A stretch of DNA of 64,000 nt from Pocillopora damicornis (GCF_003704095.1 NW_020844494.1:682001-746000); one strand, 5' to 3'; shown: positions 30,128 to 63,906, counted from the first letter of the stretch. Numbers and translations are program-made. The notes: a model not told the origin generated them from the letters alone.

Positions 30128-30195
30128 GTTGAAAATTGTGACCCAGACCTCTCACGTCCTCTTCACACAGTCGTAATATAACGTGCAGGTTAAAC

Positions 30196-31516: not shown

Positions 31517-31525
31517 GAGGTTAAA

Positions 31526-33484
31526 ATGGATGTAGTTAATGACTCGGGGATCAATTTTATCATTTATTTACAAAATTCTTGCGCCGATTGGCAAAAAGAG
31601 ATGCTCTTCCTTTCAAAAGTTGGTGATCCTAGAAACTCCTTTCTGATCTATTTTCCAGTGGCTTTTCACTTGAACCACAAGCTAGGAGTGAGTGTGTTAT
31701 GGACGGCTGTTCTGTCTGAATGGCTCAACTTAATTTTGAAATGGTAAGAAGGAAATGGCTCGTGTGCTATTATCTTGTATGTTAAGCAATTTAACTGAAA
31801 GCTGTGAAAACTTCCTTGCATGATATCTTTTCAAGAAAGAACCAATCACAACTGTAAAAAGCATACCACCAATAACCTCATTCAAAACTAACCAATCACT
31901 TTCCATGCATCAGACTCGCAAGAGTCTCATAACAAGTCTCAGCTCAGGTGGAAATGTCATCAAATCATTGGCTGTTACCATTAGTGACTTCATCTCATTA
32001 TTATGATGATAATAATTTATCTCATTATTAAATGCAAGGGTGTGGTTGTATAAATATGGGGACAGAAAGTTATACCCTTGGCTGAAATTAACTCCCTTAA
32101 GTCCCATGAGAAGCTTCAGTTTTCCTGCTACTGCTGCTTAAATGTCCTGGTGCTGGTGTCCAGGTCCCCACCTCTAATGAGAATCCTGCCAGATGACAAC
32201 AGTCCATTTCCAATTCAGGACTGCCTTCATTCTGACAATCACATTAAGTGATTAGGATGTCACAAGTTGTCTTATTCTACATGCACCATCATAAATTGTT
32301 TGCTAAGATGAATCACTGTGTCTATTAGGATTCTGAGAGGTGACAGGCCATACTGGTGGGTACATGAATCAGAACAATGGAGGAATGTGACACTTCAGCA
32401 GTTTGAATTGACTTGTGAAACAGGACCAGGCAAGTAAAGGAATTAGACCATATACCACCTCTTTAATTAAAAGTACAAAGATGCTTTTGAAATATCAGCT
32501 CACTAACCTTCTTTAAAATTTCGCATCGTGTTATTGGTTGGTCAAGTTTATTTTGGGACTGATCAACAAACTTGCAATAAATAGTTTTTCTAACTCTCAA
32601 GAATTCTCCAACATCCCCAAGTTTTTCAATCTAAACATACCTATCAGCCAGGCAGTTTGTTAACTGGTATATAAACTAGAGTAACATCAACAAGTCATGT
32701 ATCTTTTGCACGGTAGATAATTTTGTTGTTACTCTCTCTCATTTCAACAGGGTCACCATCTGGTCATGCTATGGTCACCTCAGCTGTGCTATGCATATTA
32801 GCATTGCATGTGATGAGCTCACTCAAGGAAACAATCTTACTTCAAACACATCTGTTGTTGAGATATTTTACAACCATGACAGTTTGGAGTTTGTTTTTAA
32901 CTGTTGTCTCTCTTGTGTCAGTCTCAAGAATATTCTTAGCAACACATTTTCCTCATCAAGTGGTACAGGGCACAGTAATTGGTGTGATACTAGCATTTTT
33001 TGTAAGAAAGAACATTTCTAAATTACTAAAAGTTGCCTATTCTTTTTCTTATTGTGCAGCTTTTTCCTTAGCCTTGGTGGCAATAACCTTAGTGTCACAT
33101 GTTATCCTTTCATTCCTTGTATATGATCCTTCAATTTCGGTAATGAAAGCCAAGAAGTGGTGTATAAAGGCATCGTACATCCATCTGGATACTACACCAT
33201 TTTACGCACTAGTTCGTGATTCTGGAGCAACTTTAGGATTAGGAATTGCTTTCACTGTGATAAGATTGATTCTTAAAACAAGGGAAAATAACTGGAGAGG
33301 ATTTCAAACAACATTACTGACAGGAAGTCTAAAAATTCCATTGTCACTTTTTGTATTACAGTTATTGGAAGTGATATCTTTACCTAAATCACATCCTACG
33401 CTGTTTTATTCTGCCGGGTTCATCCGTTACTCTCTTATTTCGGTTGTTGTAATTTTAATTGTTCCAAGCATAGTATTACTGTGA
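31526..33484 (+). CDS. G6PC: Glucose-6-phosphatase catalytic subunit family (PAP2), 3 exons
   Basis: Exons 31526-31743, 32329-32429, 32751-33484. Motifs [65 protein letters not shown]. Intron 2 has a GC donor. Paralogue identity (G6PC1/2/3) not resolved. Confidence 0.92.
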
Positions 33485-34156
33485 GTGTTTTAAAAAAGTG
33501 AATTTTGAAGAGTTGTACGTGTATTTGATTGATGCATTTATTTATAATTATAATCATATTGATATTACATGACTTAGTTCATAAGGATGGGTTTAACTAT
33601 TATTATCTTTTACGCATGTCCAGATTAGCCTCCTTCAGTTCCTGGTGTTACATGTACTTTTGAGTGACAATTTGGTTTTGAACCTGTTGTTGATGGCAGT
33701 TAAGCTAATTTACGTGAATGTTAAGAATAGAAATATATAAATCATACCACAGATGAAAGTGGCCTTTGCAAAGAAAGTGTTCCTTTTTAATTTTTTTGTA
33801 ATGCAAAAGAGGCAATGCATGGAAATGTAAATAATTTATGATACATTTAATGAATGAAGAGATGAAGAAATAAATGGATAAAATCAGAATGCTTTATATT
33901 GTAATAAGTACTGCGTGACATCCAGGTGTCACGCGTGACCGATAAGCGTGATAATTATGTTCGGGCGCGGGAAGATTGGAAAGGAGCGTGCTTGATCCCA
34001 GTTTCTTCATTTCACGGCTCGCCTCGGCAGGTAAGGCGAGGGTCCACGCAACATGAACGTGAGTAGCATTGAAATTTGAGGGTAATTCGAACATAAACCA
34101 CTAGAATGTCTGCTAGGGAAGTTCACGGCAATCTTTACTACAACAGGTGTACACGG

Positions 34157-36483
34157 ATGGCGACGAACAGAAGGAACTCTGGGATGAACTTAGCAAAGGA
34201 GTAGAAAGCTCACGATTAGTTGTTGTGCATTTGACGAAAGGAGACGAAGGTACGTAAGAATATTTATCGCGGACTCAGCTATTTTGACCTTCGGACCTTA
34301 TTACCTTGGCGTAATTGTCTTTCCGAACGCTCTCTACTTTGACGAAATACTGATACGTGGGAATGAAAATTTTCTTTTTTCGCAAATTCGAGGTCGACGT
34401 GAAGGTATTGTTAACAAGTGTGCGCTAGCTTGACACCTCACTGCACGGAATGTATGGAACCTCCATAAATAGATTTGAGCTCATACAACCTTTAAATACG
34501 ATTAATTTAAATACTTGCTAATGGCGTTAGAGTTTTAGTTAAAGATCTGTCCGGTTTTCAGTTTGAAAGCATATTAATACCTACCGCAACAAAGTTGTTA
34601 TTGTTCGTGAAAACTCATTCAAAACAGAACTCAAAGATGGTCACAGCATCCTAAATGGTGCGTGCATTGTCTACACAGTATGTCTTACGTTTCAATATCG
34701 CAGCTTCTCGTTCATCATTCGTCTACTCAAAAAAGCTTTGTACAGCGAACTCCGTTTAAAGTGATGTTACTTCACATGTTCACATAAGATCGTCTAGAAC
34801 ATACTAATTCTTTCATTTGTTTGGTATGTTACACATTTACTAAATGTCCATTCTAGGAATTTCCTTTTGAAGCCAATATCACATAAAATCGATTTAGGTT
34901 GAAAAATATTAAGTAGATCGCCTGATGAAGTATATTGTTGAATTTAAAACTAGATGGACTCCTGTGCGAGGGAATCCCCTTTTGTTCAAAATCCATCCAC
35001 TAGCAGTAGAGTAGATTTAAACAATTTTAAAATCAGTATTTATAACCTCAAGGTTTTAAATTAGACATCCAATCATTATTCGAGTTGCTATTAGTGGAAA
35101 ATTAAAAGACCCTTAGTTTTATTGGAAAATCATGAAATAATAGATGAATTGAAAGCAGGGAGGCTGTGAGCTCATAAATACTGGTTGCGACTCTGATCAT
35201 CAGGCCTAAAATTTGTTTTATCTCCTTCAGGGTTTGGTTTTAACATTCGAGGCGGAGTTGATCACCCTCATGTCGGGTGTGACCCAGGAATATTCATCAC
35301 CACTGTCAGAGCTGACAGTGTGGCTGGGAGAGATGGGAGACTAGAACCAGGGGACAGGATATTGGCAGTATGTAGTTCAAGCAGGATTTTTTAAATAAAT
35401 GAAAAAAAACTTAATCTTATAAATACAAAAATACACCTAATATTCCAACTACTAAGACCCAGTTCAGGGTTGACCACCAAGCTTTGTTTTCTGGCAACCT
35501 GTTATGGGTTCTTTTATAAAAGCTTTAATAAGGAAAGAACCCTATGACACTTTAACCTCCTTACCCTTTAAGGAAATTTAAAGATATCAGTGGAGAATAT
35601 CAATACTAATATTGGGGTGTAAAAGATAAATCTTCAGCTAAGATGAGAATTTACTTTGTGTTGTAATTGATTTGGGCACTGCTGATCCTAGCAGAATGCA
35701 GGAGGTTCCTTGCATATCAACCTAGCAATGGCCTTGCTCAGTGGAAAGTTCTCTCACTGTTACTCAATGGTAGAGCATCTGGCTACAAAATCCAAAGGCT
35801 TGGGGTTTGATTCCTTGTGGGAAACTTTGATCTTTCACTGATTTTGAAAAACTTAACTTTGAAGAATAATACATATGGGTTGACATGGCTCTCAAGACTG
35901 AACACAATAAGGTGAATTACTCAAAGTTTATTGTGATTCTTTGTATTTTTTCAATAGCTAAATGCCACAAATCTTGAACGTGTGACTCATGATGAAGCTG
36001 TCAATGAATTCCACAAAGCAGAAGAAACTGTTTCCTTACTAGTGGAGAAGAATGCGGAGGCATATCTGTTGGTCAGTTTTGAATATTGTGTACTTTTTTG
36101 ACTTGTTTCTTGATATTTGATTTTATGAAATATAATCTTTCTCTATACAAGTTGTGGGATGGTCAATGTGGGGTTACAAATCAGCAGCCTATTACTGGTT
36201 GTAAGTAAGGATATGAGGAACTATTTCCTCTATACTAAAAGTGTGGTTTAGTTCGTTGATTTTTTGGCCTATTTTGCAGTCAAACGAAGTCCCAAGCTCA
36301 CCAGAAGTAACAGTGACAGATGGACCAGTAACACTTGAACCAGATCAGGAAGAACCCCCTAATGCAGTTATTAGTACATTAAAACATTTCTACAATTCCA
36401 ACGTAGGAGCTCTGTCAATTGGATTGGCAATTGGAAGTTTAGCTGTCTATGTTGCTCTTCGAATTTATAAAGTTAACAAGTAG
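34157..36483 (+). CDS. SYNJ2BP: Synaptojanin-2-binding protein / OMP25 (PDZ + C-terminal tail anchor); 5' start uncertain
   Basis: Exons ~34157-34249, 35231-35367 (GFGFNIRGG...GIFITTVRADSVAGRDGRLEPGDRILA), 35958-36071 (VTHDEAVNEF), 36280-36483 (TM LSIGLAIGSLAVYVAL + basic RIYKVNK). ATG 34157 is out of frame as assembled. Confidence 0.85.
35677..35826 (+). mobile_element. Degenerate tRNA-like interspersed repeat in SYNJ2BP intron 2
   Basis: A-box-like TACTCAATGGTAGAGCAT and B-box-like GGTTTGATTCC, preceded by GCTGATCCTAGCAG...GGCCTTGCTCA. Resembles an abundant coral repeat (from memory). No intact cloverleaf. Confidence 0.6.
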
Positions 36484-37559
36484 CACTAGAGATGATTAGG
36501 GATAGATACACAATTCTTCAGCCTTTGTTACCAAAGATCCTCTAAATGTGAATTCTCATAGCAGTGAACCAGATCAAAAAACATGTGGATGTCAATGGCA
36601 AAAAGTCTTTTTTATTTTGGAATGTCTATAAAGCAATATTGACATTGATATGTGGAATTCTGTAGGGAGAAAATAGCTCATGGTTGCTTTAAAAAACCTA
36701 ATCATTCCATGCCCCTGGAGCAGGGTGAATTTCTACATCAGTTGATACTCTGAAGGTCAGTCTCAAAACTGGTAATCGTCAAAAGCTACACAAACATTCT
36801 AGCAACACAGAGTATACCTCTCACTGTTAAGTGGTTTGACGACACAGAACAAAGTGATTGGTTATTTCTTATTCTTGCAACATAATCGTTCCATAAACTG
36901 TCCCCTCATGTCTGAGGTTGCGTTTTAACTTTATGTCAGATTAATGTTATTTTCTTGGCCGGTTGATCATCCACATTATCATTTTACATGAGGGACTAAA
37001 TAATATTACCCTAGCGCTGACATTACCGTTTCTTCAAGAACAGCACGGGAGGTTAAAGATGATTGGTTTATGTTGGGCTATTGTAGGTAGGCCTTTGTTA
37101 GCTAGATACCGTTCAAGTTGTTTATTATTCTCGCCTTTTGTTCTCCCCTCCACCTGTCATTAGAAATAGCTAAGTGATAAATTAACTTCATTCTTTTGAG
37201 ATCGTCACCCATGGTGAAAAAAATTGAAGATGAATAGCCATTAGCTTTTACTCTTGATTCCAAATTTTTGTAGTTTATTTTGCATACACCAACATGGAAA
37301 TAAAATACAAAATCCTCTTTCTTCGCCTCGCCTCTGAAATTCAATTGAAGCACAGGAACCCCAATCTCGCCATTTAAGAGCGTTCATAGGGACGACCAAC
37401 ATTCAAGGCTCCCATGAACTGAATAGTGTGGCATTTACTGACAGTTTTTCCTCCCGTTTTTATCGTATCGTGGCAGTTACTACTGCTAAGGTTATTAAGC
37501 CTATTTCACGGATTATATGTTTATGATTATTTTGGTTACTGCATCGCTAAAATTCCTTG

Positions 37560-38644
37560 ACGAACGGTTCCTCAGTTCCAAATCTGTTGTCATCACCGCA
37601 CCAAGTTGACGTACAGTGGCTACTAGATCATCCGCAAAACGTTGTTCATTTTTGCGGATGACCTAGTGGTCATTTTTACTGCAATTGAAAGTTAAAAGAC
37701 GTCAGATGTTGTTTATTACAAAACGCGGAGGGGTGAAACTCCTGAAGTACCAAATTAACAAATGCGGTGAATTTCATTGACACGCTCGGGACCTGTTTAT
37801 AATGAGCAATTTTTGCGCATGTTCTCGTATTGCCAAGTGACGTAAATCAAACAACACAACCAATCAGATTACGAGTAGCACAGGCATAGCTTCGTCACTG
37901 CAAACAACATCGCGTTTTGTAATTTTGTAGTTTATGATTTTATCGGTAATCAGCGTATTAATATAAGGAGAATGTTTAAGGTTTATGTATCCAAGATCCC
38001 CTCACTTTTCTTTCTCCATCAAACTCACTGCCTTGAGTTCGTAACATGCTAATTTAACGGCAAAACCATCATCGCAGTAAGTACAAATTCTCGACTTCTG
38101 TCTTGACGCGACCTGTTAGTGTATGATTTCTTTCCCTGTATTGTAACGATGACGATGCAACGGAAAGAAGCTCTTGGTAGTTTGTTGAACATATTGACTA
38201 AGTTAGGCTTTCATTCTAAGAGCAGGTGAAAAATTAATTACATAAAAATTTCATGTACTCTCTACGGCTATGAGTGTTCTAACGCACTATTCCTTGTCAC
38301 GAATGTTCCCGTTGTTGCCTAAGAGAATACGATCAATTATTTAAGACTTCTGTCTTAAGTACTGCAGTATTTGAAATCATCAATACGAACGGTTCCTCAG
38401 TTCCAAATCTGTTGTCATCACCGCACCAAGTTGACGTTCAGTGACTACTAGATCATAAGCAAAACGTTGTCCATTTTTGCAGATGATCTAGTGGTCATTT
38501 CTCCCTCACTTTTCTTTCTCCGTCAAACTCACTGCCTTGAGTTCGTAACATGCTAATTTAACGGCAAAACCATCATCACGGTAAATAAAAATTCTCGAGT
38601 TCTGTCTTGACGCGAGCTGTCAGTGTATGATATCTTTCCCTATA
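37560..38644 (+). repeat. Local duplication: 38385-38644 copies 37560-37675 joined to ~37999-38140
   Basis: High-identity direct repeats; the second copy lacks about 320 bp of the middle. Confidence 0.85.
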
Positions 38645-38859
38645 TAGCTGGACAATAACTTTTCCTATCAAGTGAGCCCTTAACTTAACTGTCAAGAGAC
38701 GGATTGCACAGTCATTGAAGGAAAGGTCGATTTGCAATCGCAGCATGGTTACCAAGTTCTTATGTTTACTCAAGTGGCGAAGTTGAATTTTCAATTCTAT
38801 TATTTCATTTCATTTATTTTCCTTACTAGTTAGAGACCCATCCGGCGGATACATCAGAC

Positions 38860-40968
38860 ATGTTAACGGAGCTTTTCAGTGGAATCATGATGACTTTGCC
38901 TCTGCTCGTCATCCTTCATTCTGCGCAGCCTGGTGTACTATCTTCCATAAACAACTGTTTAACAGGAGGATTCTTCTTCGCTTCAGGAAGAAACATGATA
39001 AACAACTATGCCCTTCGGGGTCACCTGTTACGTCAGATGACTGTAACACAGCCAATCAGATGCTTTGAAAAGTGCCAGTCTGACTGTCGGTGCATCTCGT
39101 TCAATTATCTGACCGATGTGAATAAAAATAACTGCGAGCTTAATGAGGAAAGTAGGTATACCAATTTCAGTGCGTTGAAGCCTCTAGAGGGATCGCAGTA
39201 CTACGATCTAATCGTCAGCTATGATATTAGGGTAAGGAAAGCTTAAGGTGATTCCTCAATACTACACACTGCATCCTGTACTTCGCAGATTTCGAAATCA
39301 CATAATCAGGCGAATAAGCGCGCGTGCATTCCGAGAACACGGTCGTGTTTTTCAATTAATAGACCAAGCAAAGAGGTACGATGGTCCTTAGCTCTTGAAC
39401 GAACACGGTGACCTACATTTTTTATTGCTTAATTTTGGTGTACAAATCATCTCCTTTAAAGTGGAGAAATTAAAAAAAAATTCAGTGAAGGAAAGAAAGA
39501 TATAGCTTAAAACGGCACGAAGCCTGCGGTTACTTCAGGATGCATATTATGACCTTGGAAGCAACGAATCGAGGAAAGTTTTGAGGAATTTTTAGTGCTG
39601 TTCCTGCGAGTCAAGTTTCACTTAAACGACCATAATTGGTACAGGAAAAAAGTGGTCGCTTGATGGACGTAGTCTCCGAAGAGAAAAAGTCACTACAAAA
39701 AGCCTTGCAAAAACTGATTAGAGGAGGTTTTAACTTTTGTTTTCTACAATGCATTGTGACAAAATTGTTTGGGGATTAAAAGTAACCTTGAAATAGCTGA
39801 AATGGAAAACTCTTCTTCCAAGTCTCCAATATCACTATGTTTCACATGCCATTTTAGGTCATGAACTTATTCTTTGAAACATAACTTTTCTTTTTTTATG
39901 TTTTTACCCTTTGGTTCTGAATAAACAAATTTGTCTAGACAAACGTCCCCTTGGCTGAGTGTTACAATGGATGTTGTGCAACTCAGACCTGCTTTAACGG
40001 TGGAACATGTCACGAGACTTGTGACGTCACAGGCAAGCGATTCAAGTGTTCATGCAAGCCAAACATCGTTGGAAAGTTCTGTGAAACTGGTAAGCTTAGT
40101 ACTCTAGGTTTATATGAGGTTCTTAGATCGACATTGTTTCAACTTCCGTGGCATTTGAATGTCAATTATTACTGCAAATCCTTACATCCGATTGGAGGTT
40201 ATCGCTAACGAATAAACCACACTCCCTCGAACATTTCTTTTGTATCGAAAATAGAAAGAAAAAAGTAAATCATCGATTGGAAGCGATGAAGAGCTGTTCG
40301 AGACAAATTGGGCCTCATTAGCCTGGTATCGCTAACATGATGATTTTAAGTTCCTACATAAGAGATGTAAGGATGTGGTCTCGGAAGGCTGGAACAACTT
40401 TGTATGCCCTCGAATTAGAACGCTACCTTCATATTTTCTTTTGGTAATAAAGACTTAGAACCAATATACCATAATTACCATTGGTGCATGCACATTCTGT
40501 TGTTACAGCACACCATGTCATCATTTGACTGCTTACACAACAACTAACACAGTGTCACTTTCCACAGCCACATGCTCCACTCCTGGCTGGCTCAGAGTTA
40601 ACAATTCATGCTATAAGGAGTTTAATGAACAGGTAAACTGGTTCACTGCTCAACAAGCGTGTCAAAACTTGAACAGCAATCTTACATCCATTCATTCAGA
40701 TGCAGAAAACAAGGTTATTCGGGAAAAGGTTGCATCATCAATTTATTCAAGATACTGGATTGGACTTAACAACTTAAGAAACAACTCCGTGTTTGAATGG
40801 AATGATGGATCTTCTGTGTCATTCACTAAATGGTATCCTGATGAACCAAATAATAGCGGAGACGAAAATTGTACTGAGGTCGTGGATAACGTCGCTGGCG
40901 AATGGAATGATTTGAACTGTTATACTCATTACAGGAGTTACGTCTGTGAAAAGCAATGGAACCTTTGA
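38860..40968 (+). CDS. Secreted PAN/apple-like + EGF + C-type lectin protein, 3 exons
   Basis: Exons 38860-39231, 39939-40089, 40568-40968 (phases 0 and 1). Signal peptide; CFEKCQSDCRCISFNY...NCELNE (PAN-like); CFNGGTC...FKCSCKPNIVGKFCE (EGF); CTLD with WIGL, EPN and WND. Confidence 0.88.
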
Positions 40969-43921
40969 AGTCTTTCACTTTGAAGAACTTTACTTTTGAT
41001 CACGATGCTCTCTTGTTTCAAGCCATGAATTTTATCTCTGTAGGATGTAAAATATCTCTCTTTATACTGAGAGAAGATGAGACCCCCATCTACCAAAGCC
41101 CAAGAAGGACATTGCACAGTGTCAGTAAATTTAGCTACTTTTAAAATTCACCTGATCTTGTCAGGAATGGGTTGATAATGAGCTAAATTAAAAGACGGAG
41201 TGACATGAAGGGCTAGAGGAGCGTTTAGCTCCACTGGGTGAGAAAAATCTGCTCAAACCCATTGGAAACATTACATTTGTAGTTTATACTTTGAGTTTAT
41301 CTTATCGCTCATGTAATTTCAGTGCACCGTAATGATTTCTCCAAATATACGAGAAGTCAGTCTTTGAGATCTCAGAGCCAAGTCCTTCTCAGAAAAATAA
41401 TGTAGTCAGACATCCCTCCATATTTCTCGACAAAAATGACCAAATAAAAAAAATTTAAATCACGCTCTCATTTTTATTCTCTGGTTAAGAGAATTGCAAA
41501 GATCTTCGATTTCGTGTTGGCCTTTGAAAATTAATTACTATAGATGCTCTTTCATAGTCAAGGGTTTCGCCTGAGAGGAACAGTCCATCGTATAATGTTA
41601 GTCCAGGTGGGATGAGAGTCGTCCTCAAAATAATTATGAGCCATTATCTCTGAAAAATAAACTGACGTTTCGACAACCTGACCTCCATCATATGGTTAAT
41701 TGAGGAAATGCGTGGTGTTGGGGATAATTCGTGATAATGCTTTACTTTTCAACAAACGTTCAACACACTTTCACGAACTAAGTCAAAATTCTCTATTCAA
41801 CGCTTTCCGAGCTCAAAAATAATCTTCACTCCCATTCTAAAAAGTTTCACTGACTCCATCAAATGACAGGCCGTCATTTCGACATATATAACAGGCTCTT
41901 ATCTGTGAAGGGAGGGATTTTTCCACATGGCAACAAGTACTAAGCTTTTCGCCATCACTGCCACAACGGATGATACTCCATTGATAACGGAAACTGTTAT
42001 GTTCGCGATAAAAACGTATAGAGGTACATCGAGGTTGATTTCAAGGTAGTAACAGTTCCTATGGAGGGAATGATTTAGCGAATTCCTAGCTTCGTAAAAG
42101 CTGTAGCTGTTGTTTATTTCTGTACTTTATGTCTCTTAATTAATGTTGATAACAATTGTCAACGGTGAGCAAGTCGACTTTTCAAAACCCATAACCACCT
42201 TGAATGTTCTAGCTTTGAAAAAAAGCCTCTGAACTCTACGAGTTGACAAGCAAAAAACTTCTCATCCTCATTGTGTTTGTACCTTTAATTAAATTTGCAA
42301 TTATCTTTGTAAGTGCGCTTTATTTCACTACCTTGCCTCAGTCAAAACAAATATTCTCCTTATTTTCACCAGGTGTTTTGTCGACAGCGCGTTTGAGGAA
42401 TTTCATTGAAGACTGAAAACTATTTGATCGATGTCGTTTTTTATATATGCCTTTACGAGTTATCTGTTTTTTGTTTAGGAGAACTTACCGCACTATTGAC
42501 GGGGCCTTCGAACATGTGTGAAACATCAATTAGGGAGGTACGAATGAATTATTTGCCGAAGCTTCGATAGCGAAAAGACAGCCCTAGTTAAATATTATTT
42601 CAAGTTCGATAAAGGTTTATTAGAACAAAATAAACTGATATGAAAACTTAAGAGGAATTGGCAAAATACACCTTTCAAGGTGACAAAACAATTTGGCTTA
42701 TTTTCTTATAGATAGGAATGCCTCTTTGAAAATTTCCATTAACTTTCATTTCTAAAGCAGGAAATTAAGTTAAATTATGTTTGTTTGATTGGAAAATGTA
42801 TCCTTTTGAGAAAGTGAAGGTTGAAAAACAAACCAAGATATTGATATTTGTATTAATGATCTTATTCTTTGGAAACATTGTTACTCGGTAGTAAAAATGG
42901 AAAACACTATTTGCTGCAAATTTTGAATAATAACCAATGGTACATTGCTCTTTGAGAAAGCAAGTGAGGAATGTACTAAGAGAACAGTTTAAAAGAAAAC
43001 AGTTAATTAACTTTGAAGNNNNNNNNNNNNNNNNNNNNNNNNNNNNNNNNNNNNNNNNNNNNNNNNNNNNNNNNNNNNNNNNNNNNNNNNNNNNNNNNNN
43101 NNNNNNNNNNNNNNNNNNGAGGAATGTACTAAGAGAACAGTTTAAAAGAAAACAGTTAATTAACTTTGAAGAAGAGAAACACTTACAAAAGGTATTTATG
43201 GGCAGCAAGAAAATCTAAAACAAATACAAATAACATTTTTTGACAAATTTCATTTAAATTTTTCGCGAACGTGATCGTATTTTGCTGGTGTCTGTGTGGG
43301 CTTGAATTGAAAAAGAGAAAAGAAAAGATCTTGTCGAGAGAGGGATTGATATGACAAAAATCTGCGGGTATTACTGCGTCTAGTTTAAGAAATCAGAAAC
43401 ACAAAGAATGCAAATTTAACACACTCATAAAATAGTCAGACAACTGCACCGTAAACGATCGATATTCCCAGGCTTACAGTGTGAGATAATCAATTATAGT
43501 TCCCAATCTTTTACCAAGATTGCCTCGAGAGTTTGGTTACTGTTTGTATCTAGCTGACAACTTCTCTTGGTTGAAATCCCGGTTCCTGAACCTACGAGCC
43601 ATTACTGTGCTGGAGATAATTATTTTAACAAAGTTTGAAAACGGAGCAAAGTGACAGTTTGAGCCAAAGGGAAATAAATTACAGAAAAACTTCTAGTTCG
43701 CCGTTTGCAATCCTTTTCAATCCTCCTCCTTTTAAACTATATCTCTTTCCTCTCTTTCTCTTTTTTTTCCCTTTTTTTCCTTTGAACGAAATATTGAATT
43801 TGAATGGACGGATGTGGGGGAGGAGGTTGTGAATGACTGTCCCCCACGTACTCTGTCTGAAAATTCAACTTCTTGACATTAAACCAACACAGTTTCAGTT
43901 CTCCAAGTCACTAATCAATAC

Positions 43922-44884
43922 TTATCGGCTACCTTTGCAACTTTTCAAAAGTCTGAAGACAGCTCTCCGTATTTCCCGCATTCTACAGCAGTAAAATATT
44001 GGATTAAGAGATGAATTGATGTACACAATGGTGACTGCGACACCAAGTATCAAATGCAAGTCTGTTGTGATCTTACCTTCTATCGTTATGGCAACAAAGC
44101 ACCAGAAAAGTGGAGTGTAACATATCAGGTACAAGGCGAACAGGTATGTCATGGTTAGAGCTGTCCTAGCTCTCGATGTCACTTCCAGGTTTCTGACCTG
44201 ATTGGATGTCACGTTACGGTTGATATCCCGGATCGCTTTCTTGTGATGACGCGCTAAGAGAAGAATTCTCAAATGCAAATAGCAATTTAGTACCAGAAGC
44301 AACGGGATGATCACGTGCGCAAGTAAACCCAAACCTGATTCTACGAATCGCGACAGTGCTGAAGGTGAAGTGAAGATCCAACAGGAAAGCACAACAAATA
44401 ACACACGATTCTTTGTAACAATGGCTTCGTACCTCAGTGGATACATTAAGCAAGTGTATCGTTCCACACTTAGACAAAACAAATTTAGAAATGTCGCACC
44501 AGCCCCAATAGCACCAAATGTCTCAGACATGAACCACAGGAAGCAAGCTCTGGAAAGATTCACGTTTCCAAACCCCACCTTGACCATAAAACTGGTTTGC
44601 GAAAACAGCCCCACAAAGAGATCTGAGGTGATTAACGAACAAAGCAGACCATTCTTCGGTGAATGTAGTGCTGGAGTTCGTATAATAGCGCACAGAACAA
44701 AAATATTGAATGTGATTGCTGTCGTCGACGTTACTGCATTTGCAGTGATGAGGAGAATGGCAATTTCTCGCTTGTACCAGGAAACATCGGCTTCCAGATC
44801 TAGAAATGTACAATGCTGCACAAGATCTGCAGTTTGATTTCCTGAGGGCGGTAACCCAGCTCTACTTTGGTTAATTGATAGCAT
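43922..44884 (-). CDS. Intronless rhodopsin-like (class A) GPCR, orphan
   Basis: 320 aa with seven hydrophobic segments; SDLFVGL (TM2), SVERY (TM3), CYTP (TM6), NSSLNPIFY (TM7). Confidence 0.92.
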   Translation of the reverse strand: MLSINQSRAGLPPSGNQTADLVQHCTFLDLEADVSWYKREIAILLITANAVTSTTAITFNIFVLCAIIRTPALHSPKNGLLCSLITSDLFVGLFSQTSFMVKVGFGNVNLSRACFLWFMSETFGAIGAGATFLNLFCLSVERYTCLMYPLRYEAIVTKNRVLFVVLSCWIFTSPSALSRFVESGLGLLAHVIIPLLLVLNCYLHLRILLLARHHKKAIRDINRNVTSNQVRNLEVTSRARTALTMTYLFALYLICYTPLFWCFVAITIEGKITTDLHLILGVAVTIVYINSSLNPIFYCCRMREIRRAVFRLLKSCKGSR

Positions 44885-45387
44885 AAGAATTTATACATAA
44901 GCGTAACTTGAATTATAGGAGCTTATTCTCTCTCGTTGTAGTACAAGAACAGCATGGAAACTTTGTAAATTCTTCGCGGAAAAGAAACTAATGCACTGAT
45001 TTGAAAGAAACGATTATGTTAAATATAGATTGTGCAATGTTTACAGTCGAAGTGTCATATTTCAAATATATTTTCGTAAAAGTAAATGAAAGTCCGCTAT
45101 GTTTGTTTTTCACCAAACATCTACTTCCTTTTTCAATCAATAGTGAAGTATTTTAATAACTTTATACCGCATAGCTAAAAGATTATTTACACTCAGAAAA
45201 ATCGAACAGATGGAGTTTCACACGATTCTCACAAAATACGAGGACGATTTTTTGTAAATTTCGTCTGTTGCTTACGATATTAAATTAAAGTTGACCTTCG
45301 AGAATTTTCCACCCATAGCTTTGGATCTTAAGAAATAGGAAAAAAAATCAGTGGCGAATTGTGATTTGAAGAGGATGTGGCTTCCAT

Positions 45388-46045: not shown

Positions 46046-47046
46046 TACAATTTTTATTTTTAATTCTTGGTGGTCATACATCTAATTACTACAATTACAT
46101 TTTTCATTATCCCTTCGAGTCCACATGTGACTTTACACAGGGCTGATGCGCATGCCATGTTAGTGAACGGATGAGATGGAGGGGTTAGTAATGCAAGTGC
46201 GCTGTCAATCAAAGATTGAATGAAGTGAAACTCAAAACGATCAGGACTCACCCCTAATCTTTGTGTATGCATGTTTTCCTTTTATCAAAAGCAATTTTTT
46301 TGCCTCACTTTGGGAACCCGTGCACCATTCAGAAAAATGGCCCACAACATACCTTTATAATTATGCAGATCTTTAAAAACAATGAATGTTAACACAAGGA
46401 AAATTTGCATTTGAATCGTTAGAAAGGATGAGTGCAGATTTACTGAACAAAAGCCTTGCACACTAACACAATAAATTTTTAAATTACAAAACTGTAAAGG
46501 AAAAAAGAGGTGACAATAGATACAAAGTTCTTCCTTAAATTTTGACGTGCAATAAATACGATATTTCATCATCTTATTCAGTGCGTGCTTAACCAAAGGT
46601 GAACCTATTGTTTCCGTTTAAAGTACTTTTGCGCGTCAATTTATCGCTTTCGCATTCGACTATTGTCATACTAACGTCCCAAGAGCTAAAAGCTAATTTT
46701 CGTCATTGAAAGCATTACTTGATGTCCAAAATTTGGCGTCAGTTTGCTCTAATAGAACAGGTTTTCGTTCGCACGTAAGCTGACGAAAAAAAATGAATAT
46801 TCATCAACGTTTTATTTGGTTCTTGTAAATTCAGAAAGATTAATCTAGCAATACGACAGCTTTTTGTTTCTTTTGAAAAACCACCTGCAGAGAATACTCA
46901 GAAGTCGAGCTTCGCGGCGAAAACTAAATCGACATTTGTGAGGAACGAAGTATGAAGCGTTGTTTTGAGCCGAGTCAAGCTCAACATTTCTTATTCTCTG
47001 AAATTTGTTTGGTATTTCCTCAGAATTTCTTTGGACTCATCCATCG

Positions 47047-48390
47047 ATGAAAATACGTCGAGTTTACGAACAACTTTTGAAGCAAGAAAAGCGAACAGTC
47101 CTCCGATTGAAGTGTCTTTCTGGAGCAACAGCCTTTATTGTCTTCGCTGTGTTTCTCACAACGTTTCTTAGCTCAGAAGTCGTTCGGAAAATTGCTAAAG
47201 GTTTTAGTTTTGAGGAAGGTGGCTGCGTTGTACAAGAATCATATTTTACTGGTAGCAATGTTACCTGCGCATGTGGAATGCACACTTGTTTTAGCCTCTA
47301 TCCTTGTTTACGGATCTTGGTAAAAATGACTGCGAAACGGACTGAAGATGCTGAAACATCTACGCCAGTCCTTCTGCATAACACCATTTACGATATGGGA
47401 TCTGAAGTAAGTCAATGGATGCCTGTTCTTCTGAGTTAAGATAATTTTGCGTCTACGCACGGTTAATTATTGTTCACAGAGTTGAATAATACGTGGTAGA
47501 AAACGGATCACAGTGCTTTAAAGAGCATGTAGAATGAAACTCCCAGGCTTAAAGGAATTCCTAAACTTGAAAACAATTTACGTATGAAAGGATTTTCAAA
47601 ATTTTTTCGTGTCAGCTTCATATGCCAACGCCAAGACAATTTAAACAAATAATCGAACGGAAGACAGCCTAAAGAAGTACATCGATCCCAAGTTTTAAAG
47701 ACAAAAACATATCTACAAGACTCTAAAACCGTTCAGTCCAAAAAAATTTCAACTTGATATCTAAATTATGAATTGAAAAAGTGCAACTAAAGTTCAAACA
47801 CCAATTTTCTAGACCTTCTTTCAACAAGGAACTGCAAATTGGCTAGACTATCCCGTTTGTTTACAATATAACCTCAGACGATTTATGCAAAAGTATAATC
47901 ACTCGTGGTGTTTCATTATGTTAATTAGAAAACAAAATACTATCTGTTCGCGATAGCTTGCTTTAGTTTTTAAGAGCCGCTTCCTTCGTAATAATTTATG
48001 AATCATTGATGTTGATGTTTTCTTCAATTTCAGTGTACCTACGGGCCTCCTTGTGAGCCAAATATCACCAACAACTTCGCTTCTGTGCTCAAATACAAAA
48101 ACTCCAAGGGACAGCGGGATCACCTGTTGCAGTGTTACTTTAACCCGAATGATCCCACAGAGGTGATATTAGACAAAAGTGCACATGAAATGATTGCGTT
48201 TCACGCCATGTTTTGGCCATGTTGCGCATTTATAATCGGTCTGTGTATTCTGCTGAAGACATATTACATGAGGAAAGCTCACAAAAAGCAGGATGTTGTA
48301 AAGCCACAAGACATTGAACTTGGAGAGACACATCTCACCTCTAATAACAACGTTTATAATTATCCTTTCGTCAAAAGTCTTGCAGACTAA
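47047..48390 (+). CDS. Calcium-activated (BK) potassium channel beta-subunit-like protein, 2 exons
   Basis: Exons 47047-47406 and 48034-48390 (phase 0). Two TM helices flank a Cys-rich loop with YPCLRILV, ECTYGPPC, QCYFNPNDPTEVIL and FHAMFWP, all KCNMB hallmarks. Confidence 0.82.
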
Positions 48391-50552: not shown

Positions 50553-53500
50553 CTAATTTGTCTTTAAGAAACCTGAAATATCAGCCTCAATACAAGCCCC
50601 ATAGCCTTCACGATGGTACAAGCTAAACATCTCGGGTGTAAAGAACTGATTAGCGGTGATGTGATGAGGAAATGACCCTTGCAGAAGGTTAGACATGTAC
50701 TGGCAGCTCTTTCTATGGCAACACAAACAGCAGCAACCTGTCAGTCTGTCAGCTTCGTGTTCAGTAATCTCAGGACTTCTTCCCCATTTCCCTTGGTCTG
50801 GATCTCCCAGCTTGATATCAGAATTTTCCCACGATTTTGGTTTCTGGGTGACAATTCTCGCAAGAGGTATGCTTTCAGATGGGTGTCTGGGAGCAATGAA
50901 GAGTATTTCTCCCTCTCCTGTTTTGTTGTCATCCTCATCATAATACTGGACTCGGAATTGGTAGCTCCGTGGCCTTTGTTGTGAATTAATCTTCAAAAAG
51001 TTAACTCTAATATCTTCCTCAATATCTCTCCCATTCACTCCAGTAAATGAGCAGTGTAATTTCTGCCTCGCCATTCTCAGAGCAGTAAGGAGAGAATCGG
51101 CGTATTTATGACCACCAGGGTTACAAGAGCCATCAAGTATCACAATTTTCTCCAGTTTTCTGTCAAGTAGTGGAAGTAAGGCCAGGTTTTCAAAGTGACC
51201 TCCATCGCTGAGTCGCAGTACTGGCGGAGGATTAAGTCCAACGTTATTTATGTTTAGAAACCCACGAAGGAAGCGAACGTAGAAAATGTGAGTAACACAC
51301 CATCTGAAAGAGAAAATATAATGAATCATGGTCATTTGGAACGGCAAAAAACATAAATGAAAGCATTATTTTGGCAAAATCAAATAGAATGAAGCCGCTG
51401 ATTCCACAGTATAAGGAAGCGTAAAAGTTAACTCTATCTCACTTGTGGTACACAAAACTAAAGAAGCAGTGACATCCAGCACTATCAGAGGATGCAGATT
51501 TTGTGATCTGTTTGGTGCAGCTGTGTTTGATACATGCTGATAGCATTAATGACGATGGTGCTCATTCTATCTATTAGTAAATAAATGATGGAGTTATTCA
51601 TCATAATACTGTCACAGTCATGGAAATAGTAATCTAGATGGCCGTCCGTGTTGGCCAACATAATGATGATGACACTGATGGTGAAGTGATAGATGGTGCT
51701 CTCGGTGGTAGTAAAACAGTTTTAGAAAAGCACCTGACTAAGCGCTGAATTTTTCCCGGTTGAGTCGACCCAGTATTGAGCGCAGCCAAACTTGCAAGTG
51801 CTACAACTACGGCGATGTGTAGGAGTACTAAGAGCACCACACAGTCTTTGCTATTTCCAAGCCAGTAGACAAAGGGTAAGGCCATCAGTGGAAAAAAGCA
51901 GGCAATTTCAACCAAGATTGGTGTCACGTACTGAGGAGAACAAAACATTACTTGTTAGGATTGAGTGTTAGCTCCTTTTGCATAAGGTCTTAAAAGTATG
52001 CTATGGTACCCAGGATAGATTCATTAGTGTCATATGAGGCATAATAAGGTCTTGAATATTTCCTGTAAAGAGCTAAATATTAGAAGGGTGAGCAACCGAG
52101 GTTCAAACGCTGAAGTAGGAAACCTTCCTCATTACGTTAAGATCGCGTATATACAAAAAGTTTAGCTAAGTTGTCTCCTTCCCCTTTGGTCTGAAAACAC
52201 GACACAATTTCGTTGAAGTTATGCACACACCTTTTCACTGCAACTTAATTCCTCTTCAGAATGTTCGCCATACACCAGTTCATCTCCTAAACTTATTCCT
52301 ATCAAAGTGAACAAGTCAGAGACCATATCAAGGCCATTCTGAAAATCGTCTCCCATATCAAAGCTGACAGCAGCTCCAGATAAGGTCATTGCAACAGATA
52401 ACTTCATGAGGCGAGAATGAGGACAAGCAGCAAACGTATGTGCAGCAATCCCTGTATTTTCTGTATCGTTGCCGATAAGTTTCGCTCCATCTGTTGAGAA
52501 TGCCATCAATTGGTGACGTGAACCGGCACCATTACCAATTTGCCAATCGTTAACTGTGATATTACTGATGAAAGTGGGTGAAAGACCCTCCAAGTCCTGA
52601 AGCGACAGCTCATCTTCCATCTCACAAGGACAAACCCTCTGGAACTCGTTTCGTTTGATGTACTTTTGGATACTTTTGATTGGCTCCACACACCAAGGAA
52701 AGACATCTCCATGCCTAAGTTTTCCTCCGTACCTAAAGAAGGCGTTGGACAAACGATACCTAAAACGGGAGACACCTATATTAAGTTATCTGACCAATTT
52801 TCTTTCCAGAGATAAAGGAAGAAGAATGAAGTCTCTTACAACTGCTAATACTGAGAAAATGAGACAGAATTCTAGTTACTTCAACCAGGTTTGAAGAACT
52901 ATGAGTTAAATTTATTCTTTCGTTTCTTCGAGCTTATGATATTTAATTCCGTCATGCCAATTTTCTTTTAGTGAACCACGAAAGGAATCGAATATAACCG
53001 GTAAGAGTTCACGATTATTTACGTATCACAAACCTGTAGTATACATGGAACAGAGACTGCTGTAGAGATCTAATGTATGGAAAAAATATAAAGGCCAAGG
53101 CACACATCATCAAAGCTGGGTAAAACACTTCATCGGAATATGGTACATTCCCCATCAAATTTATCTTGAAGACCTTCCAGCTCAGGATATAAGTGTACAT
53201 GTAAGAACGCAGGCAAAAACCAGCGCTATTACGGAGAACAGGAATAAATAAAGGAAGCCCGACGCTAAGAGAAAAAATGACAAATCTCATCCACATTTGT
53301 GAGGGCCACAAAAAGTCATGTGCAGCCCAAGGAAAAGCAGTAAAGGCAAATATCAATCCACTGAGTGTTGATAGGAGTCTAAGGGGGCCTTTGTAAAGAG
53401 CCAGGCCTTCCTTTTTCGACAACACATAACACACAAACGAAACTACTGCTGTTGTTGTAAACAGTAACACCCGTCTGACAGGTGGATGACAGCCATCAAA

Positions 53501-54792
53501 CAGTTCCAGCATCAGCACCGAAGACCAGGCATCCGGATGTTGGAGGGAGTGCAAGGAAGTACAGTTCTCCCGTAAAACGTCACCAAAGAAACAATCCACA
53601 GCTACGGCAACAGGAAGTGCATAAGGCAGCCACATCATGCATGGCAAAATGCACGTCACAAGTAGCCCGATTTGTATAAGTAGCAGGGATTGAAAAATTC
53701 CTAGAATGGGATTTTGCCAGTTGCATAAGTACCCAGAATTGGCTCGCATGTGTTCAAAGAACTCCTTGTGCCACTCCTTGGTGTTATTTTTGGAGCCATG
53801 GCGAAATTTCCAATCCATAAAAGCAGCACCAGTGTAACCTCCCCCGGAAACACAGCTCAGATTTTCAAACGGGACGTCATCTTGTAACAATTTGCGCAAA
53901 GCACCGGAACAAAAGGCAGCCGAGCGGATACCTCCCCCAGAAAACGCGACCCCCGTGCTACTCTTCATCGTTCCATTGGCAGATCCACACTTGTTGATCG
54001 ATGCTGTATTTAGATCACTGCCCTGATGAAAGATCCTTGGCTGAATACCACGAAGAGTGTTGGGGCAGTGCACCCTCACTGGCGGAACCTCGCTGAGTGG
54101 AATAATAATTTCTCCAACAGTTCGGGAAGTGCTCTGCGGTGCAGCATTAACGTCCATCTGTAAAAAATGTTTATGAGAGCTGCGTCATACTTTTTTTGCC
54201 ATTTCCCATTTTTGTACCGAATCTGTTTTACTCAGCCTTGAATAATCTGATTCCTTCTCTGTTTCTTCCTACATAATTGGTGTTTGTCTTTCAAAGGAAA
54301 CTACTATTTTAAGGTTTCCTCATTATTTGACGTTTCTATGAAATTAAAAATGACCAAACTATCCCAACCTAAAGTAGCTTCCGAAAAGTATACTAAAGGG
54401 ACATCTCAACTAAGTCTAATTCTAATTTTATTCCTTAGCATTTTTTCCCTCCAATCTTAGGTGTCAAGCAATGCCCACTTGAAAGGAGAGATGTGCGTTG
54501 TGTGAGATCCTAAAAGGGACTAGACTTTCTCAAAGTAGAAGAAAACCAATATTTTGGGTTTAATTATGCAATAGAAGACATGAAAAAGCCTTTTTTCATT
54601 TCGTTTTTTTTTTCCACAGTAAAAGCACAACCCCCATAAAGCTTTGTCTGTTTTATCAGGTGGCCTAATTGTCACGCAAATTCTTTTGCTTCTGTTGCGT
54701 GACAAGAAAAGAACTATGGTCGAAGGCATAACATACAACATATATCCCACCCGAACTTAATACACCCACCCTACCTGACCAATCTCGGCCAT
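50553..54792 (-). CDS. Multi-pass membrane patatin/cPLA2-like lipase, 5 coding exons
   Basis: Exons 54792-54775 (MAEIGQ), 54157-53034, 52759-52231, 51930-51734, 51303-50553, all GT-AG and in phase. Oxyanion motif FSGGGIRSA, nucleophile SCVSGGGY, catalytic Asp in LSDGGHFENL, with several TM segments between. Confidence 0.85.
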
Positions 54793-57106: not shown

Positions 57107-59015
57107 TTACGTTTCGTCTTTGAAGAAGCTCTCCATGTCAGCTTCAATACAAGCTGCATAGCCTTCCCAGTGATACGCACTGAACATTTCAGGGGTAAAG
57201 AACTGGTTGGCAGTTATGTGATGAGGAAATCTTCCCAAAAAAGCATCTGAGATGCAGTGGGAGCTGCCATAATAATGACAACAAACACAAAAGTAACATG
57301 TCAATCTGCCTACTTCACGTTCTGTCAGTTCGGGACTTGGTCCCCAATCGTTGTCGTCGAGTTCGATATCCCAAGGTATTCGTCTGCTCACCTCTTGGGT
57401 CACAGGCATTTCCTCCAATGGATCATAGCCGTCCATAGCTTTTGGTCGCTTGTCGATTGTTATCAGTGGCATGCTCTCAGATGGGTGTCTGGGTGCCATA
57501 AACAGTATTTATCCTTCCTTCCCTGTGTTGTTGTCTCCTTCGTCGTAGTAACAGACTCGAAACCTGTAGCAACGTAGTCTTTTCTTTAAATGCTGTCATT
57601 TAACTTAGTTCAGCACCACATTTTCTTCTTAGCTTCTCACCTTGGAAGAGAGAAGCAAGGAAAAAGCGCAAAGTATGGTAAGTAAGATTTCAGCGGACTG
57701 AATTTTGTTTAATTGTGGGTGTGTGTACAAGTACACTGTATGAAGATACATTGAATGCAAAACTTTACACAGTCTACGGCTTCCATTGTCTGGTATAATG
57801 ATCAATCGCTGACCGCAGATACTTTGTATCATAGCTGATTGGACATGTTGTGCAAAAAAAATTAATACAAACCTGTAGTAGACGTTGAATGCAGACTGGT
57901 GAAGAGGACCAATCAACGGGAATAAGATAACAGTGATGGCACAACCAAACAGGATTGGATAGAAAAGTTCATCAGAGTATGGAACTGCTCCCATGAACTC
58001 TGTTTTGAACACTCGCCAGCTCACAATGTGAATGTATCAGTAGAACACAAGAAATACGCTGGCATAGTTACGAATCACTGGGATCAAGAATGGAAGTACT
58101 ATACAGATTATGATTATGAAGGCTTGAATCCATGTATTTCATGGCCACAAGTCATGAATGAGAAATGGAAACAGAGTAAACAGAAATATTACGAAACTGA
58201 TCATTGAGAGCAATCGTAAGAAACCTTTTAATTTATGGAAACGTTTTTTTCTTGAAAGAAAGTAGGACAAGACGGAAAAAAATTAATGTTGTTATAATGA
58301 GGGTCGTGCGTCTACCCGGAGATTGGCAATTTTCATAGAGCATCAGCATTAAGGATGAAGTCCGTGATGTCTTGGTATCTGTGCAAGCATGCGCATTTGG
58401 GGGACATTTGGCATTCTGACGTAAGATTTCACCAAAGAGTAAGTCTACTGCCACGGCAATTGGAGATGCGTATGGCAACCATAAGACACACGGCAATATG
58501 AACACAACAGTGACCAAGAGAACTACGAACACTGCTGAATGCAAAAGACCTGAAAAGGGAAATTGCCAGTCGCACATGTAGCTAGCGTTTTGTCGCATGG
58601 TGTCAAAGAATTCGTCATGTCATTTGCTATCATCACTATTATGCCCATTACGCTTTTGCCTTTCCTTCCATTCAACAAAGGCTGCCCCTGTGTAACCACC
58701 CCCGGAAACACAGCTCAAGTAGTCTGGAAGAACATTTTCTAACAACATTCTACTCAATGCACCAGAACAAAACGCAGCAGATCGAATGCCTCCCTCGGAA
58801 AATGCGACCCCGGCAGATCTTCCAGAGCGGCTAGCTGTTGATCCACTGATTTGCTGAGATTCTTGTTTGGCCCTAACAGTGCGTTGATCATAGAAATCCG
58901 AAAGGCATTCCACCGTGCCACTGGGTGTGCTGGAGGATGATGGCCTCTTTGAAGGTATGTGTGAGGAATCAGGAATGACAACAATATCCTCAGGACCTGC
59001 TTGTGTTTCTGCCAT
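57107..59015 (-). pseudogene. Disabled tandem paralogue of the membrane patatin/cPLA2-like lipase
   Basis: Collinear homology (GVAFSEGGIRSAAFCSGAL, LSCVSGGGYTG, APRHPSES, FPHHITANQFFTPEMFS). Stops at 58620-22, 58139-41, 58037-39 and 57509-11; +1 frameshift in the A7 run 58276-82; exons 3-4 and the DGG part of exon 5 are missing. Confidence 0.88.
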
Positions 59016-59297
59016 CTCTGTCAAAAAGGAAATTTATTTCAATACAACTCTTACGCAGACGTTCCACACTAGAACTAGAATTGTACTGGAAAAAACTCTA
59101 AGCTGATTGTTATACAAAGAACAAAACAACACATTTCTGACGTATCAGATGACCAATACAAGACCAACAGAACAACAAACAAAGGTAAACAGAAAGCACT
59201 ACTTAATTTAATCTGACAACGTAAAAGTTTTTACAATTATGTTTCATCGCAAGAGTACGGATCCCAGGTACTGCCATCTCTTATTTCTCATCAACTC

Positions 59298-62122: not shown

Positions 62123-63906
62123 TCAGTTTCTGGGGATGGGAGGGTGCTCCTCATACGAATCCACAGGACTATAAACAACGTCATTATACCCAAACGCCAC
62201 CGGGCCTCCAACTGCCAGTCCCTGCGGGGTGGTCCATAGAGGAGAGCAAGGCATGACGATGACAGCCACTCGGAGGCCATAACGAACTTCCTCTGTTGTG
62301 ATTGGCTGGCCTGTATCTTCATCTACTAAAGAGATCAAATCAGGAACCGTAGCAAGAACACTCCTGGAGCCATCATATTTTGTAACAAAAGCCACGTAGT
62401 TTTCATTCTGGAATTCAATACCAAGGTTCTGATTATTAAATTGTCCGGAGCCTTCAATGAGCAACCTTCCTCTGTTAAAGGCACCTTCAGTTACACGGCT
62501 TACGTCCGCTATCTACAAAAAGAACACATCAAATTTCAAGTTGTCGTATTTCTTACTCAATACAATTTTCTCAATCTACAAGGCAAATCATTTGTGGCCT
62601 TCGGACATTAAATAAAAATTTTCTCTTCTAAAATTAAAACGAAGCAGCCCGGCCAGTGGCGAACAACAACTCAACCCAGCGTTGCAATGTCCGAGATCTG
62701 CATTCTATATGATGGAAACATGCCCACAATCTACGAAACTAACGCTGTCAAACAGTTGAAATTAAAACAACAAGGTAACGAACCTTGCCAATCATTAAGA
62801 GTTTTCCATTTTCATGCTGAAGAATGCTATTCACTGGGGACGCCTTTTTGTGTCTGGCACGAAGAACAGTGTTACCCAGACGCCATGTTCTACTCACAGT
62901 ATACAGGGCACTTTTTTGTTGCACATCTTTCCAGTCAAGGACAAACGTAAAGCCAACCATGCAGCTAAAGAGCAAAATTAAAATATGTCAAGGAAAAAAT
63001 TAGTATCTGTTAACGGGACTGAAACTATGGCATTCGGGTTTTTGTCAAATTTGCTTGACTTCATGAGATGACTTATAGAGAGGTCAATTAGTAATAACAA
63101 AATAAATGCAAGATGCTTTGTCAACTTTTCCTGTCAATCCTCGGTAATCGAAAAGAGTTTCTTAAGTACCTACCCCATCTCTACCGTTTTAATTCTAAGA
63201 AAGCCTTCTAAGTGTTTGGGTGTTTCAGCAAATGTCAACGCGACCACATTTCCTTTTTCATCTCCAACGGCCGCTGGGTATGCTGGGCTACCATAAACAA
63301 ACGGCAAAAACATTTGCAACTCAGGAAACGCTCGTCCCATGCCATCCGCATCCACGATGGGGAGTCCCAGTTCTGCTCCAGCCACTAAGGGCTCGATAGA
63401 GTTGGCACCTCCTATCTCCGCACATACAACAGCCACGGGTTTCTTAGTGGATTGAGGCTGTTGATGAACAGACATCGAATTTCATACAAGACGCTGCTGG
63501 AAAAGCTGCATTATCAAATACTGAAACCTTCCACAAGATAGGCTTTTTATCTAGTTGAAATAATTCAAGTGCAAGTGTTGACTTGCAAGTAAGGACAACA
63601 ATTGCATATGAATTGTTTGTAAATTAACAAAAATGAGAATATGCCTAACAATCGGCCTCACAGAAGAAAGTTTACTCCTATACCTCATTATTGGCAGACA
63701 TCCACTCTTGAACACCTTTGACTTCCTTGATTCCTTCTCCATTGTCATGTTCATTAACAGCATCACCAGCGCATAAAACTGCTACAGCTGCTTTCACAGC
63801 TGAGAGACTTTCTTGTCCACTGAAAAGCTTCTCGATCAAGATAACTGGTGCACCCATAAAGGCAGGTGTCACCACGGTACCCGTTAGTTCAGGAGTGGAT
63901 CCTAAC
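62123..63906 (-). CDS. 3' exons of a DUF917-domain protein (possibly a hydantoinase/oxoprolinase-DUF917 fusion); continues beyond window
   Basis: Exons 63906-63684, 63457-63174, 62964-62784, 62512-62123, in phase. Motifs FMGAPVILIEK, EIGGANS, DADGMGRAFPELQM, FQNENY, VPDLISLVDEDTGQPITTEEVRYGLRV, GGPVAFG. Confidence 0.82.

Follow-up and report, generated by a model that had tools for sequence, protein, structure and literature searches.

The gene lies on the minus strand of a 64,000-nucleotide stretch of Pocillopora damicornis DNA (NW_020844494.1:682001-746000; the window), where it runs from 54792 to 50553 as five exons that join into a single open frame of 872 aa. All four introns begin with GT and end with AG, and their phases are 0, 2, 0 and 2. 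Exon 1 (54775..54792; minus strand, as for all parts of the gene below) supplies the start codon and aa 1-6 and ends at a GT donor. Exon 2 (53034..54157) encodes aa 7-381, comprising the N-terminal catalytic half and predicted TM1-TM6, and is supported by splice sites, RNA contigs and structural models. Exon 3 (52231..52759) encodes aa 381-557, the mid catalytic core. Exon 5 (50553..51303) encodes aa 623-872 plus the stop codon, with the C-terminal catalytic half, a Cys cluster and an FP..T.NQFF motif; both exons were placed by splice sites and RNA contigs. Exon 4 (51734..51930; aa 558-623) corresponds to a predicted TM7-TM8 hairpin and was placed by splice sites, RNA contigs and the full-length model.

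Introns 2, 3 and 4 (430, 300 and 274 nt) were precisely skipped in RNA contigs from three of three RNA runs, which came from three studies. The first intron (617 nt) was spliced out, joining exons 1 and 2, in contigs from two of these three runs. Contigs from a fourth run, of unrecorded library type, continued through the introns and contained none of the four joints. Annotated coral proteins are collinear with the whole spliced product (Oculina protein P0001 at 62% identity over 852 columns), and a Stylophora protein shares 89% identity across the final 156 residues, which marks the host as a stony coral. The locus is a spliced, expressed coral gene. The motifs named in the original prediction are spread over four open frames of the minus strand (50553 to 54184). 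That prediction had described a gene with four spliceosomal introns, and the GT-AG sites, the 872-aa frame and the joining of every intron in RNA contigs confirm this.

The three lipase motifs were located at aa 79-86 (SGGGIRSA), 108-114 (CVSGGGY) and 654-663 (LSDGGHFENL), with hydrophobic blocks between them at aa ~155-370 and ~557-610, so that the Ser-Asp motif set is split by predicted membrane blocks as originally described. The predicted nucleophile, Ser110 (53846..53848), is Ser in 19/19 cnidarian-clade, 65/68 other eukaryote-type and 40/40 bacterial-type rows of the alignment. The predicted general base, Asp656 (51204..51206), is Asp in 19/19, 66/68 and 40/40 of these rows, respectively. 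Arg84 of SGGGIRS (53924..53926) would belong to an oxyanion/phosphate-binding loop, a role we assume by analogy with cPLA2, and is Arg in 19/19, 61/68 and 40/40 rows. The nucleophile elbow reads C/T-V-S-G-G instead of G-x-S-x-G. At position 108, 17 of the 19 cnidarian-clade rows have C and the other two have T, which also occupies this position in 36 of the 40 bacterial-type rows. By the motifs that we take to mark those families, this elbow sets the protein apart from both PNPLA and group IV cPLA2 enzymes. A CCLCCH cluster at aa 814-819 (50715..50732) was present in 18/19 cnidarian-clade, 31/68 other eukaryote-type and 0/40 bacterial-type rows, and may be a palmitoylation or metal-binding site. 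A coral subfamily (L035 and L036 on G000:C1554; P0016, P0039 and P0043) carries SGGNY where other members have SGGGY, and DGGRLEK where they have DGGH.EN. SGGNY occurs in both C1554 copies and DGGRLEK in the one that was read to its end; the variant is shared by Acropora and Montipora. Judged by its motifs, this subfamily keeps the Ser and Asp and possibly has a different substrate.

Structure was predicted with AlphaFold2 from a 53-sequence alignment in which the modelled row was the Oculina orthologue P0001, 62% identical to the coral protein. The full-length P0001 model had a pLDDT of 83.5 and a pTM of 0.85. The top Foldseek match was human cPLA2 alpha (E 9e-4). VIA-align matched the model to cPLA2 delta (Z 20.4, 340 aligned, rmsd 5.1), PlpD (Z 19.2, 237/255 residues over model residues 63-850, rmsd 3.6), cPLA2 alpha (Z 19.1) and CapE, CapV, patatin, VipD and ExoU (Z 10-16), with unrelated folds at Z <=5.2. 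The AlphaFold and Foldseek check suggested with the original prediction therefore returned a patatin/cPLA2 fold on the orthologue model, at Z 19-20 to cPLA2 and PlpD. Because PlpD superposes on pieces spread over model residues 63-850, the segments at aa ~72-155, 371-545 and 611-866 are predicted to assemble into one patatin/cPLA2 catalytic domain. The superposed part is 93% of the PlpD chain, which would imply that Ser and Asp lie close together in the model.

Profile searches gave weaker signals. Exon 2 of the window scored 24.5 against Pfam Patatin PF01734 (cut-off 27.7) over profile positions 2-78 of 191 only. Among whole proteins, 3/12 reached the curated cut-off and most fell below it, with the match confined to the first 50-70 core residues. 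No C2 domain or PF01735 match was found in the window exons, and no PF01735 match in orthologue P0001. Four window pieces had no NCBIfam match and 0/20 relatives scored above an NCBIfam cut-off; one of the 20 matched XopAP far below the cut-off, in a separate fused region. Sequence searches of solved structures were discarded: profile A1 returned weak hydrophobic matches only (E 0.5-0.6), and profile A2 returned cPLA2 delta at E 0.38, ranked beneath generic membrane proteins.

The first membrane block, predicted TM1-TM6 (aa ~162-368; 53072..53692), was defined from hydropathy, charge and helices in both models. Six long helices were seen in the first insert of both models and two in the second insert of the full model; mean hydropathy of the predicted helices was 1.5-2.4 across 47 cnidarian-clade sequences. 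Loop 1 (~36 aa), predicted to be luminal or extracellular, contains Cys205-Cys229 and the sequon N204-C-T (53489..53563), with each Cys found in 46/47 and a sequon in 33/47 of the same sequences. Sequon density in these sequences was 2.79 per 100 aa in loop 1 versus 0.30-0.48 in the core. K+R exceeded D+E in loops 2 and 4 and in the stretches after TM6 and TM8, but not in loops 3 and 7, and was equal in loop 5. Together, the sequons, the Cys pair and the charge bias suggest that about eight helices cross the membrane and that the active site faces the cytosol; the protein would be N-in and eight-pass, entering the secretory pathway with its catalytic domain in the cytosol. The proposed transmembrane check accordingly upheld ~8 predicted helices by models, hydropathy, sequons and charge. 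Modelled alone, the TM1-6 block had a pLDDT of 87.6. It gave no Foldseek match at E<=0.001 and no match of Z>=8 among 48,161 chains. Its best match reached Z 7.2 over 68 residues, and the likeness was at hairpin level only; these searches, in which transporter, channel and acyltransferase membrane folds were looked for, establish neither a known fold nor a new one.

Group IV cPLA2 (PLA2G4) enzymes are defined by a C2 domain, a GLSGS elbow, a PF01735 match and solubility. The coral protein resembles this group (human cPLA2 alpha, PDB 1CJY; cPLA2 delta, PDB 5IZR/5IZ5; family PF01735) in its top structural match, its SGGG-x-R loop and a Ser-Asp dyad that is distant in sequence with large inserts between. 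It differs in having no C2 domain, in inserts of ~8 predicted membrane helices instead of a soluble cap, in a C/T-V-S-G-G elbow instead of GLSGS, and in that P0001 has no PF01735 match. With the patatin/PNPLA family PF01734 (PlpD, patatin, CapV, CapE, VipD, ExoU) it shares the core fold, but it has neither G-x-S-x-G nor a contiguous ~200-aa domain; its domain is split over ~780 residues by membrane helices, and no CBASS or secretion context was seen. Of the patatin/cPLA2 superfamily at large, the coral protein shows the core fold (on the orthologue model), a Gly-rich loop with Arg, the Ser and the D-G-G Asp. It also has the features of a membrane-split cPLA2-like family: SGGG.RS, VSGG, DGGH.EN and FP..T..QFF, plus a multi-helix insert between Ser and Asp. 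Bacterial members of this kind share the four motifs and the hydrophobic windows, whereas eukaryote-type members branch separately and add the Cys cluster, and cnidarian-clade members, the set scored for it, have the sequon-rich loop with its Cys pair.

Relatives were named in stony corals, Nematostella (LOC116617811), Exaiptasia, the octocoral Dendronephthya and the scyphozoan Sanderia. At least four paralogues occur in the calcareous sponge Sycon. Named protist members were found in three amoebozoans (Protostelium, Planoprotostelium and Cavenderia), the dinoflagellate Cladocopium and Acrasis; these and the Sycon copies overturn the idea of a cnidarian-only family. When 1.84 billion representatives were searched with a profile, 9,997 matched at E<=1e-10, and the best 150 of these were examined. 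Among these 150, 79 were new short entries, with best matches to cnidarian-clade (71), Sycon (5) and other eukaryote-type (3) members. A third homology search was dominated by bacterial-type proteins, its named eukaryotes being Sycon copies and one MMETSP protein. The ESM Atlas returned a single eukaryote cluster, whose 69 members are most often from Cnidaria, plus bacterial patatin clusters. As classified by sequence, the family is one of thousands of clusters, mostly bacterial-type. Bacterial-type members have the four shared motifs and 4-12 hydrophobic windows, and bacterial members are annotated merely as patatin-like phospholipase family protein; the likeness in build to bacterial membrane patatin-like proteins noted originally thus extends to a large bacterial family. 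No named bilaterian, ctenophore, placozoan, demosponge, choanoflagellate, fungal or plant match appeared in the homology searches, an absence that is provisional as most matches are nameless. Within that bound, patchy retention in animals (calcareous sponge and cnidarians, no named bilaterian match) stands. Fusions were observed to EF-hands on a eukaryote-type member (P0056), to Lipase_3 on a bacterial-type member (P0090) and to a peptidoglycan-binding domain on another (L019:288-4052).

Trees were built from 326 core columns, with the membrane helices excluded, using FastTree (129 rows) and IQ-TREE (50 of those), and were left unrooted. Of the other-eukaryote rows (n=26), five are species-named and two more come from a eukaryote-database source; 7/12 bacterial rows are named. 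Cnidarians were monophyletic (100/98 in IQ-TREE) and grouped with Sycon (97/93); FastTree agreed. The bacterial-type rows formed their own clade (96/89), and protist branches (98/93 and 96/93) lay between animals and bacteria. Forcing the animal rows (n=12) to group with the bacterial rows (n=12) on a quick tree cost 60.7 log units (p-AU 0.000377), the bacterial rows being a sample from thousands of bacterial-type sequences. The AU rejection leaves direct transfer from bacteria, the acquisition suggested originally for cnidarians or animals, unsupported, as animals form a clade apart. Such a transfer would explain why the motifs and build match thousands of bacterial-type proteins and why the animal range is patchy. 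We nevertheless consider it very improbable and largely refuted for the tested sample, given the AU result, the protist members that sit between animals and bacteria, and a Cys cluster restricted to eukaryote-type members (49/87 rows versus 0/40 bacterial-type rows). Most simply, the corals likely inherited the gene by way of the animal ancestor, the family being old in eukaryotes and lost many times. A much older exchange between bacteria and eukaryotes, or a protist-to-animal transfer that predates the sponge-cnidarian split, may also have occurred. In four of four Sycon-like N-terminal fragments the match ends at profile position 316-319, past F-x-Y/F-N-R, which is the site of coral intron 2; Sycon and corals appear to share this intron, as judged from protein fragments without species names. 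Cladocopium goreaui, presumably a dinoflagellate of the coral-symbiont family, has its own family member (P0139) on a branch distant from the coral one. This distance speaks against host-symbiont transfer.

An 89-aa catalytic piece of the gene matched at least 14 places on nine contigs of the coral genome, 13 of them without a stop. The copies include tandem pairs and a triple, and intron positions recur among them. A tandem broken paralogue lies at 57107..59033 (minus strand) and has stops, a frameshift, SEGG for SGGG, and no middle section with the Asp motif. RNA contigs from one of three RNA runs cover it and are spliced from 57871 to 57638. Its N-terminal part is 75-80% identical to Stylophora P0122 versus 47-50% to the intact neighbour. 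Among the differences listed for exons 3 and 5 (at least 25), 13 were replacement and 12 silent, giving a pN/pS of ~0.29 that may mix sister species; on these differences the gene is under purifying selection. Loop 1 was the least conserved ordered region in 4/5 pairwise comparisons (34-50% identity). Canonical cPLA2-like loci (L046-L049) occur on four contigs of the same genome, with GSGGGFRA motifs and, in three, GLSGS. The genome has nine PF01735 matches, and the membrane-lipase locus is not among them. Given these separate loci, the membrane-lipase family is not their substitute.

Bacterial gene context was taken from 12 loci out of 21 fetched around one member, representing one sub-branch, in which 75/84 neighbour ORFs were scanned. 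Housekeeping, envelope or redox genes made up 47/75 of these ORFs, and 28/75 had no family. No defence hallmark (cyclase, TIR or NTPase sensor) was found among the 47 annotated ORFs at the 12 loci, and PADLOC defence models matched 0/20 relatives, setting the family apart from CBASS/patatin defence effectors. A GMC oxidoreductase gene lay upstream on the same strand at 2/12 loci (L021 and L030). At two Thiobacillaceae-like loci, an 860-aa ORF without a Pfam family directly follows the lipase gene (L014:8748-11321 and L018:8741-11326).

We consider that the protein probably resides in a membrane and remodels lipids as a phospholipase or transacylase, in a family that animals likely inherited from an old eukaryotic one. 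The ~8 helices would anchor it in a secretory-pathway or plasma membrane with the active site in the cytosol. They would stand in for the calcium-driven C2 recruitment of cPLA2 and deliver membrane lipids to the site. Ser110, activated by Asp656, would attack the lipid ester while the GGG-Arg84 loop holds the oxyanion and head group. The acyl group would then pass to water (phospholipase A/B or lysophospholipase activity) or to another lipid. The likely job would be routine membrane-lipid remodelling or fatty-acid release, with paralogues divided by substrate or tissue. Repeated tandem duplication and a fresh pseudogene are, however, also typical of interaction or immune genes. It is conceivable, though doubtful, that the protein is instead a receptor-like, signal-activated lipase whose variable, glycosylated outer loop senses a microbe, symbiont or damage cue and switches on the cytosolic domain, yielding fatty acids for oxylipin signalling, or cell killing. 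The 14 or more copies on nine contigs in tandem pairs and a triple, the low conservation of loop 1 (4/5 comparisons), the shared fold of the CBASS effectors CapV and CapE (Z 14-16) and the EF-hands on one eukaryote-type member are in keeping with this. Set against these are the mere ~36 aa of the loop, the pN/pS of 0.29 (exons 3 and 5, among listed variants, which exclude loop 1), the 0/20 PADLOC result with metabolic bacterial neighbours, and the four canonical cPLA2-like loci that could provide fatty-acid release.

Several cPLA2/PNPLA enzymes are transacylases, and a biosynthetic acyltransferase that makes a special lipid (e.g. an esterified sterol, fatty alcohol or hydroxy fatty acid), and not a degrading lipase, would fit the GMC oxidoreductase at two of the 12 bacterial loci. 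We rate this a little below the signal-activated lipase: the other ten loci have no such neighbour, and the conserved Arg84, by an analogy that we take to hold, suggests a phosphate-bearing substrate. A venom or secreted toxin would share its fold with the bacterial effectors ExoU and VipD (Z 10-14). It is the least credible of these readings, since no hydrophobic segment lies upstream of aa 155, ~8 membrane helices are predicted, and members occur in a sponge and amoebae. The toxin or immune role raised originally gained no support, with no N-terminal hydrophobic segment, 0/20 PADLOC matches, no defence hallmark among 75 bacterial neighbour ORFs, and purifying selection. A symbiosis-specific role was weakened by the members in sponge, Nematostella and protists. 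The boldest combination of these ideas, which we judge no likelier than the acyltransferase, would make the family a third, polytopic cPLA2/patatin branch of early eukaryotic origin, which sponges and cnidarians retained, bilaterians lost and reef corals expanded. In reef corals it would act as a receptor-lipase: on sensing microbes or algal symbionts, its glycosylated outer loop would trigger the release of fatty acids on the cytosolic side of the symbiosome or cell surface.

To our knowledge, patatin/cPLA2 enzymes are soluble or peripherally anchored. No published study of the membrane-split lipase family was found in the literature searched, although supplementary coral expression tables may list its genes, and a look-up with six gene identifiers returned no paper. 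Passages of PMC12419801 and PMC13069673 mention other patatins only. With no curated NCBIfam model among 20 relatives either, the original description of an undescribed membrane lipase family has held up. The family is apparently unstudied, a variant of the cPLA2/patatin enzymes with predicted helices threaded through the catalytic domain. What is new here is its eukaryotic branch, which is expressed, expanded in corals and likely kept vertically in early-branching animals; these animals keep, express and multiply a lipid enzyme for which no named bilaterian match appeared. Since Nematostella, Exaiptasia and a dictyostelid have copies, genetic tests of the family are feasible in model eukaryotes. 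It may also account for steps of coral lipid and oxylipin metabolism that still have no assigned enzyme.

Other coding features were seen in the window. At 47002-48390 on the plus strand, convergent with the lipase gene, a pair of exons matches Pfam CaKB (the BK channel beta subunit). The intervals 29807-44890 and 62126-62512 hold ordinary neighbours: DnaJ, a PAP2 family member, a PAN domain, a C-type lectin, a rhodopsin-family GPCR and an S-Me-THD-like exon.
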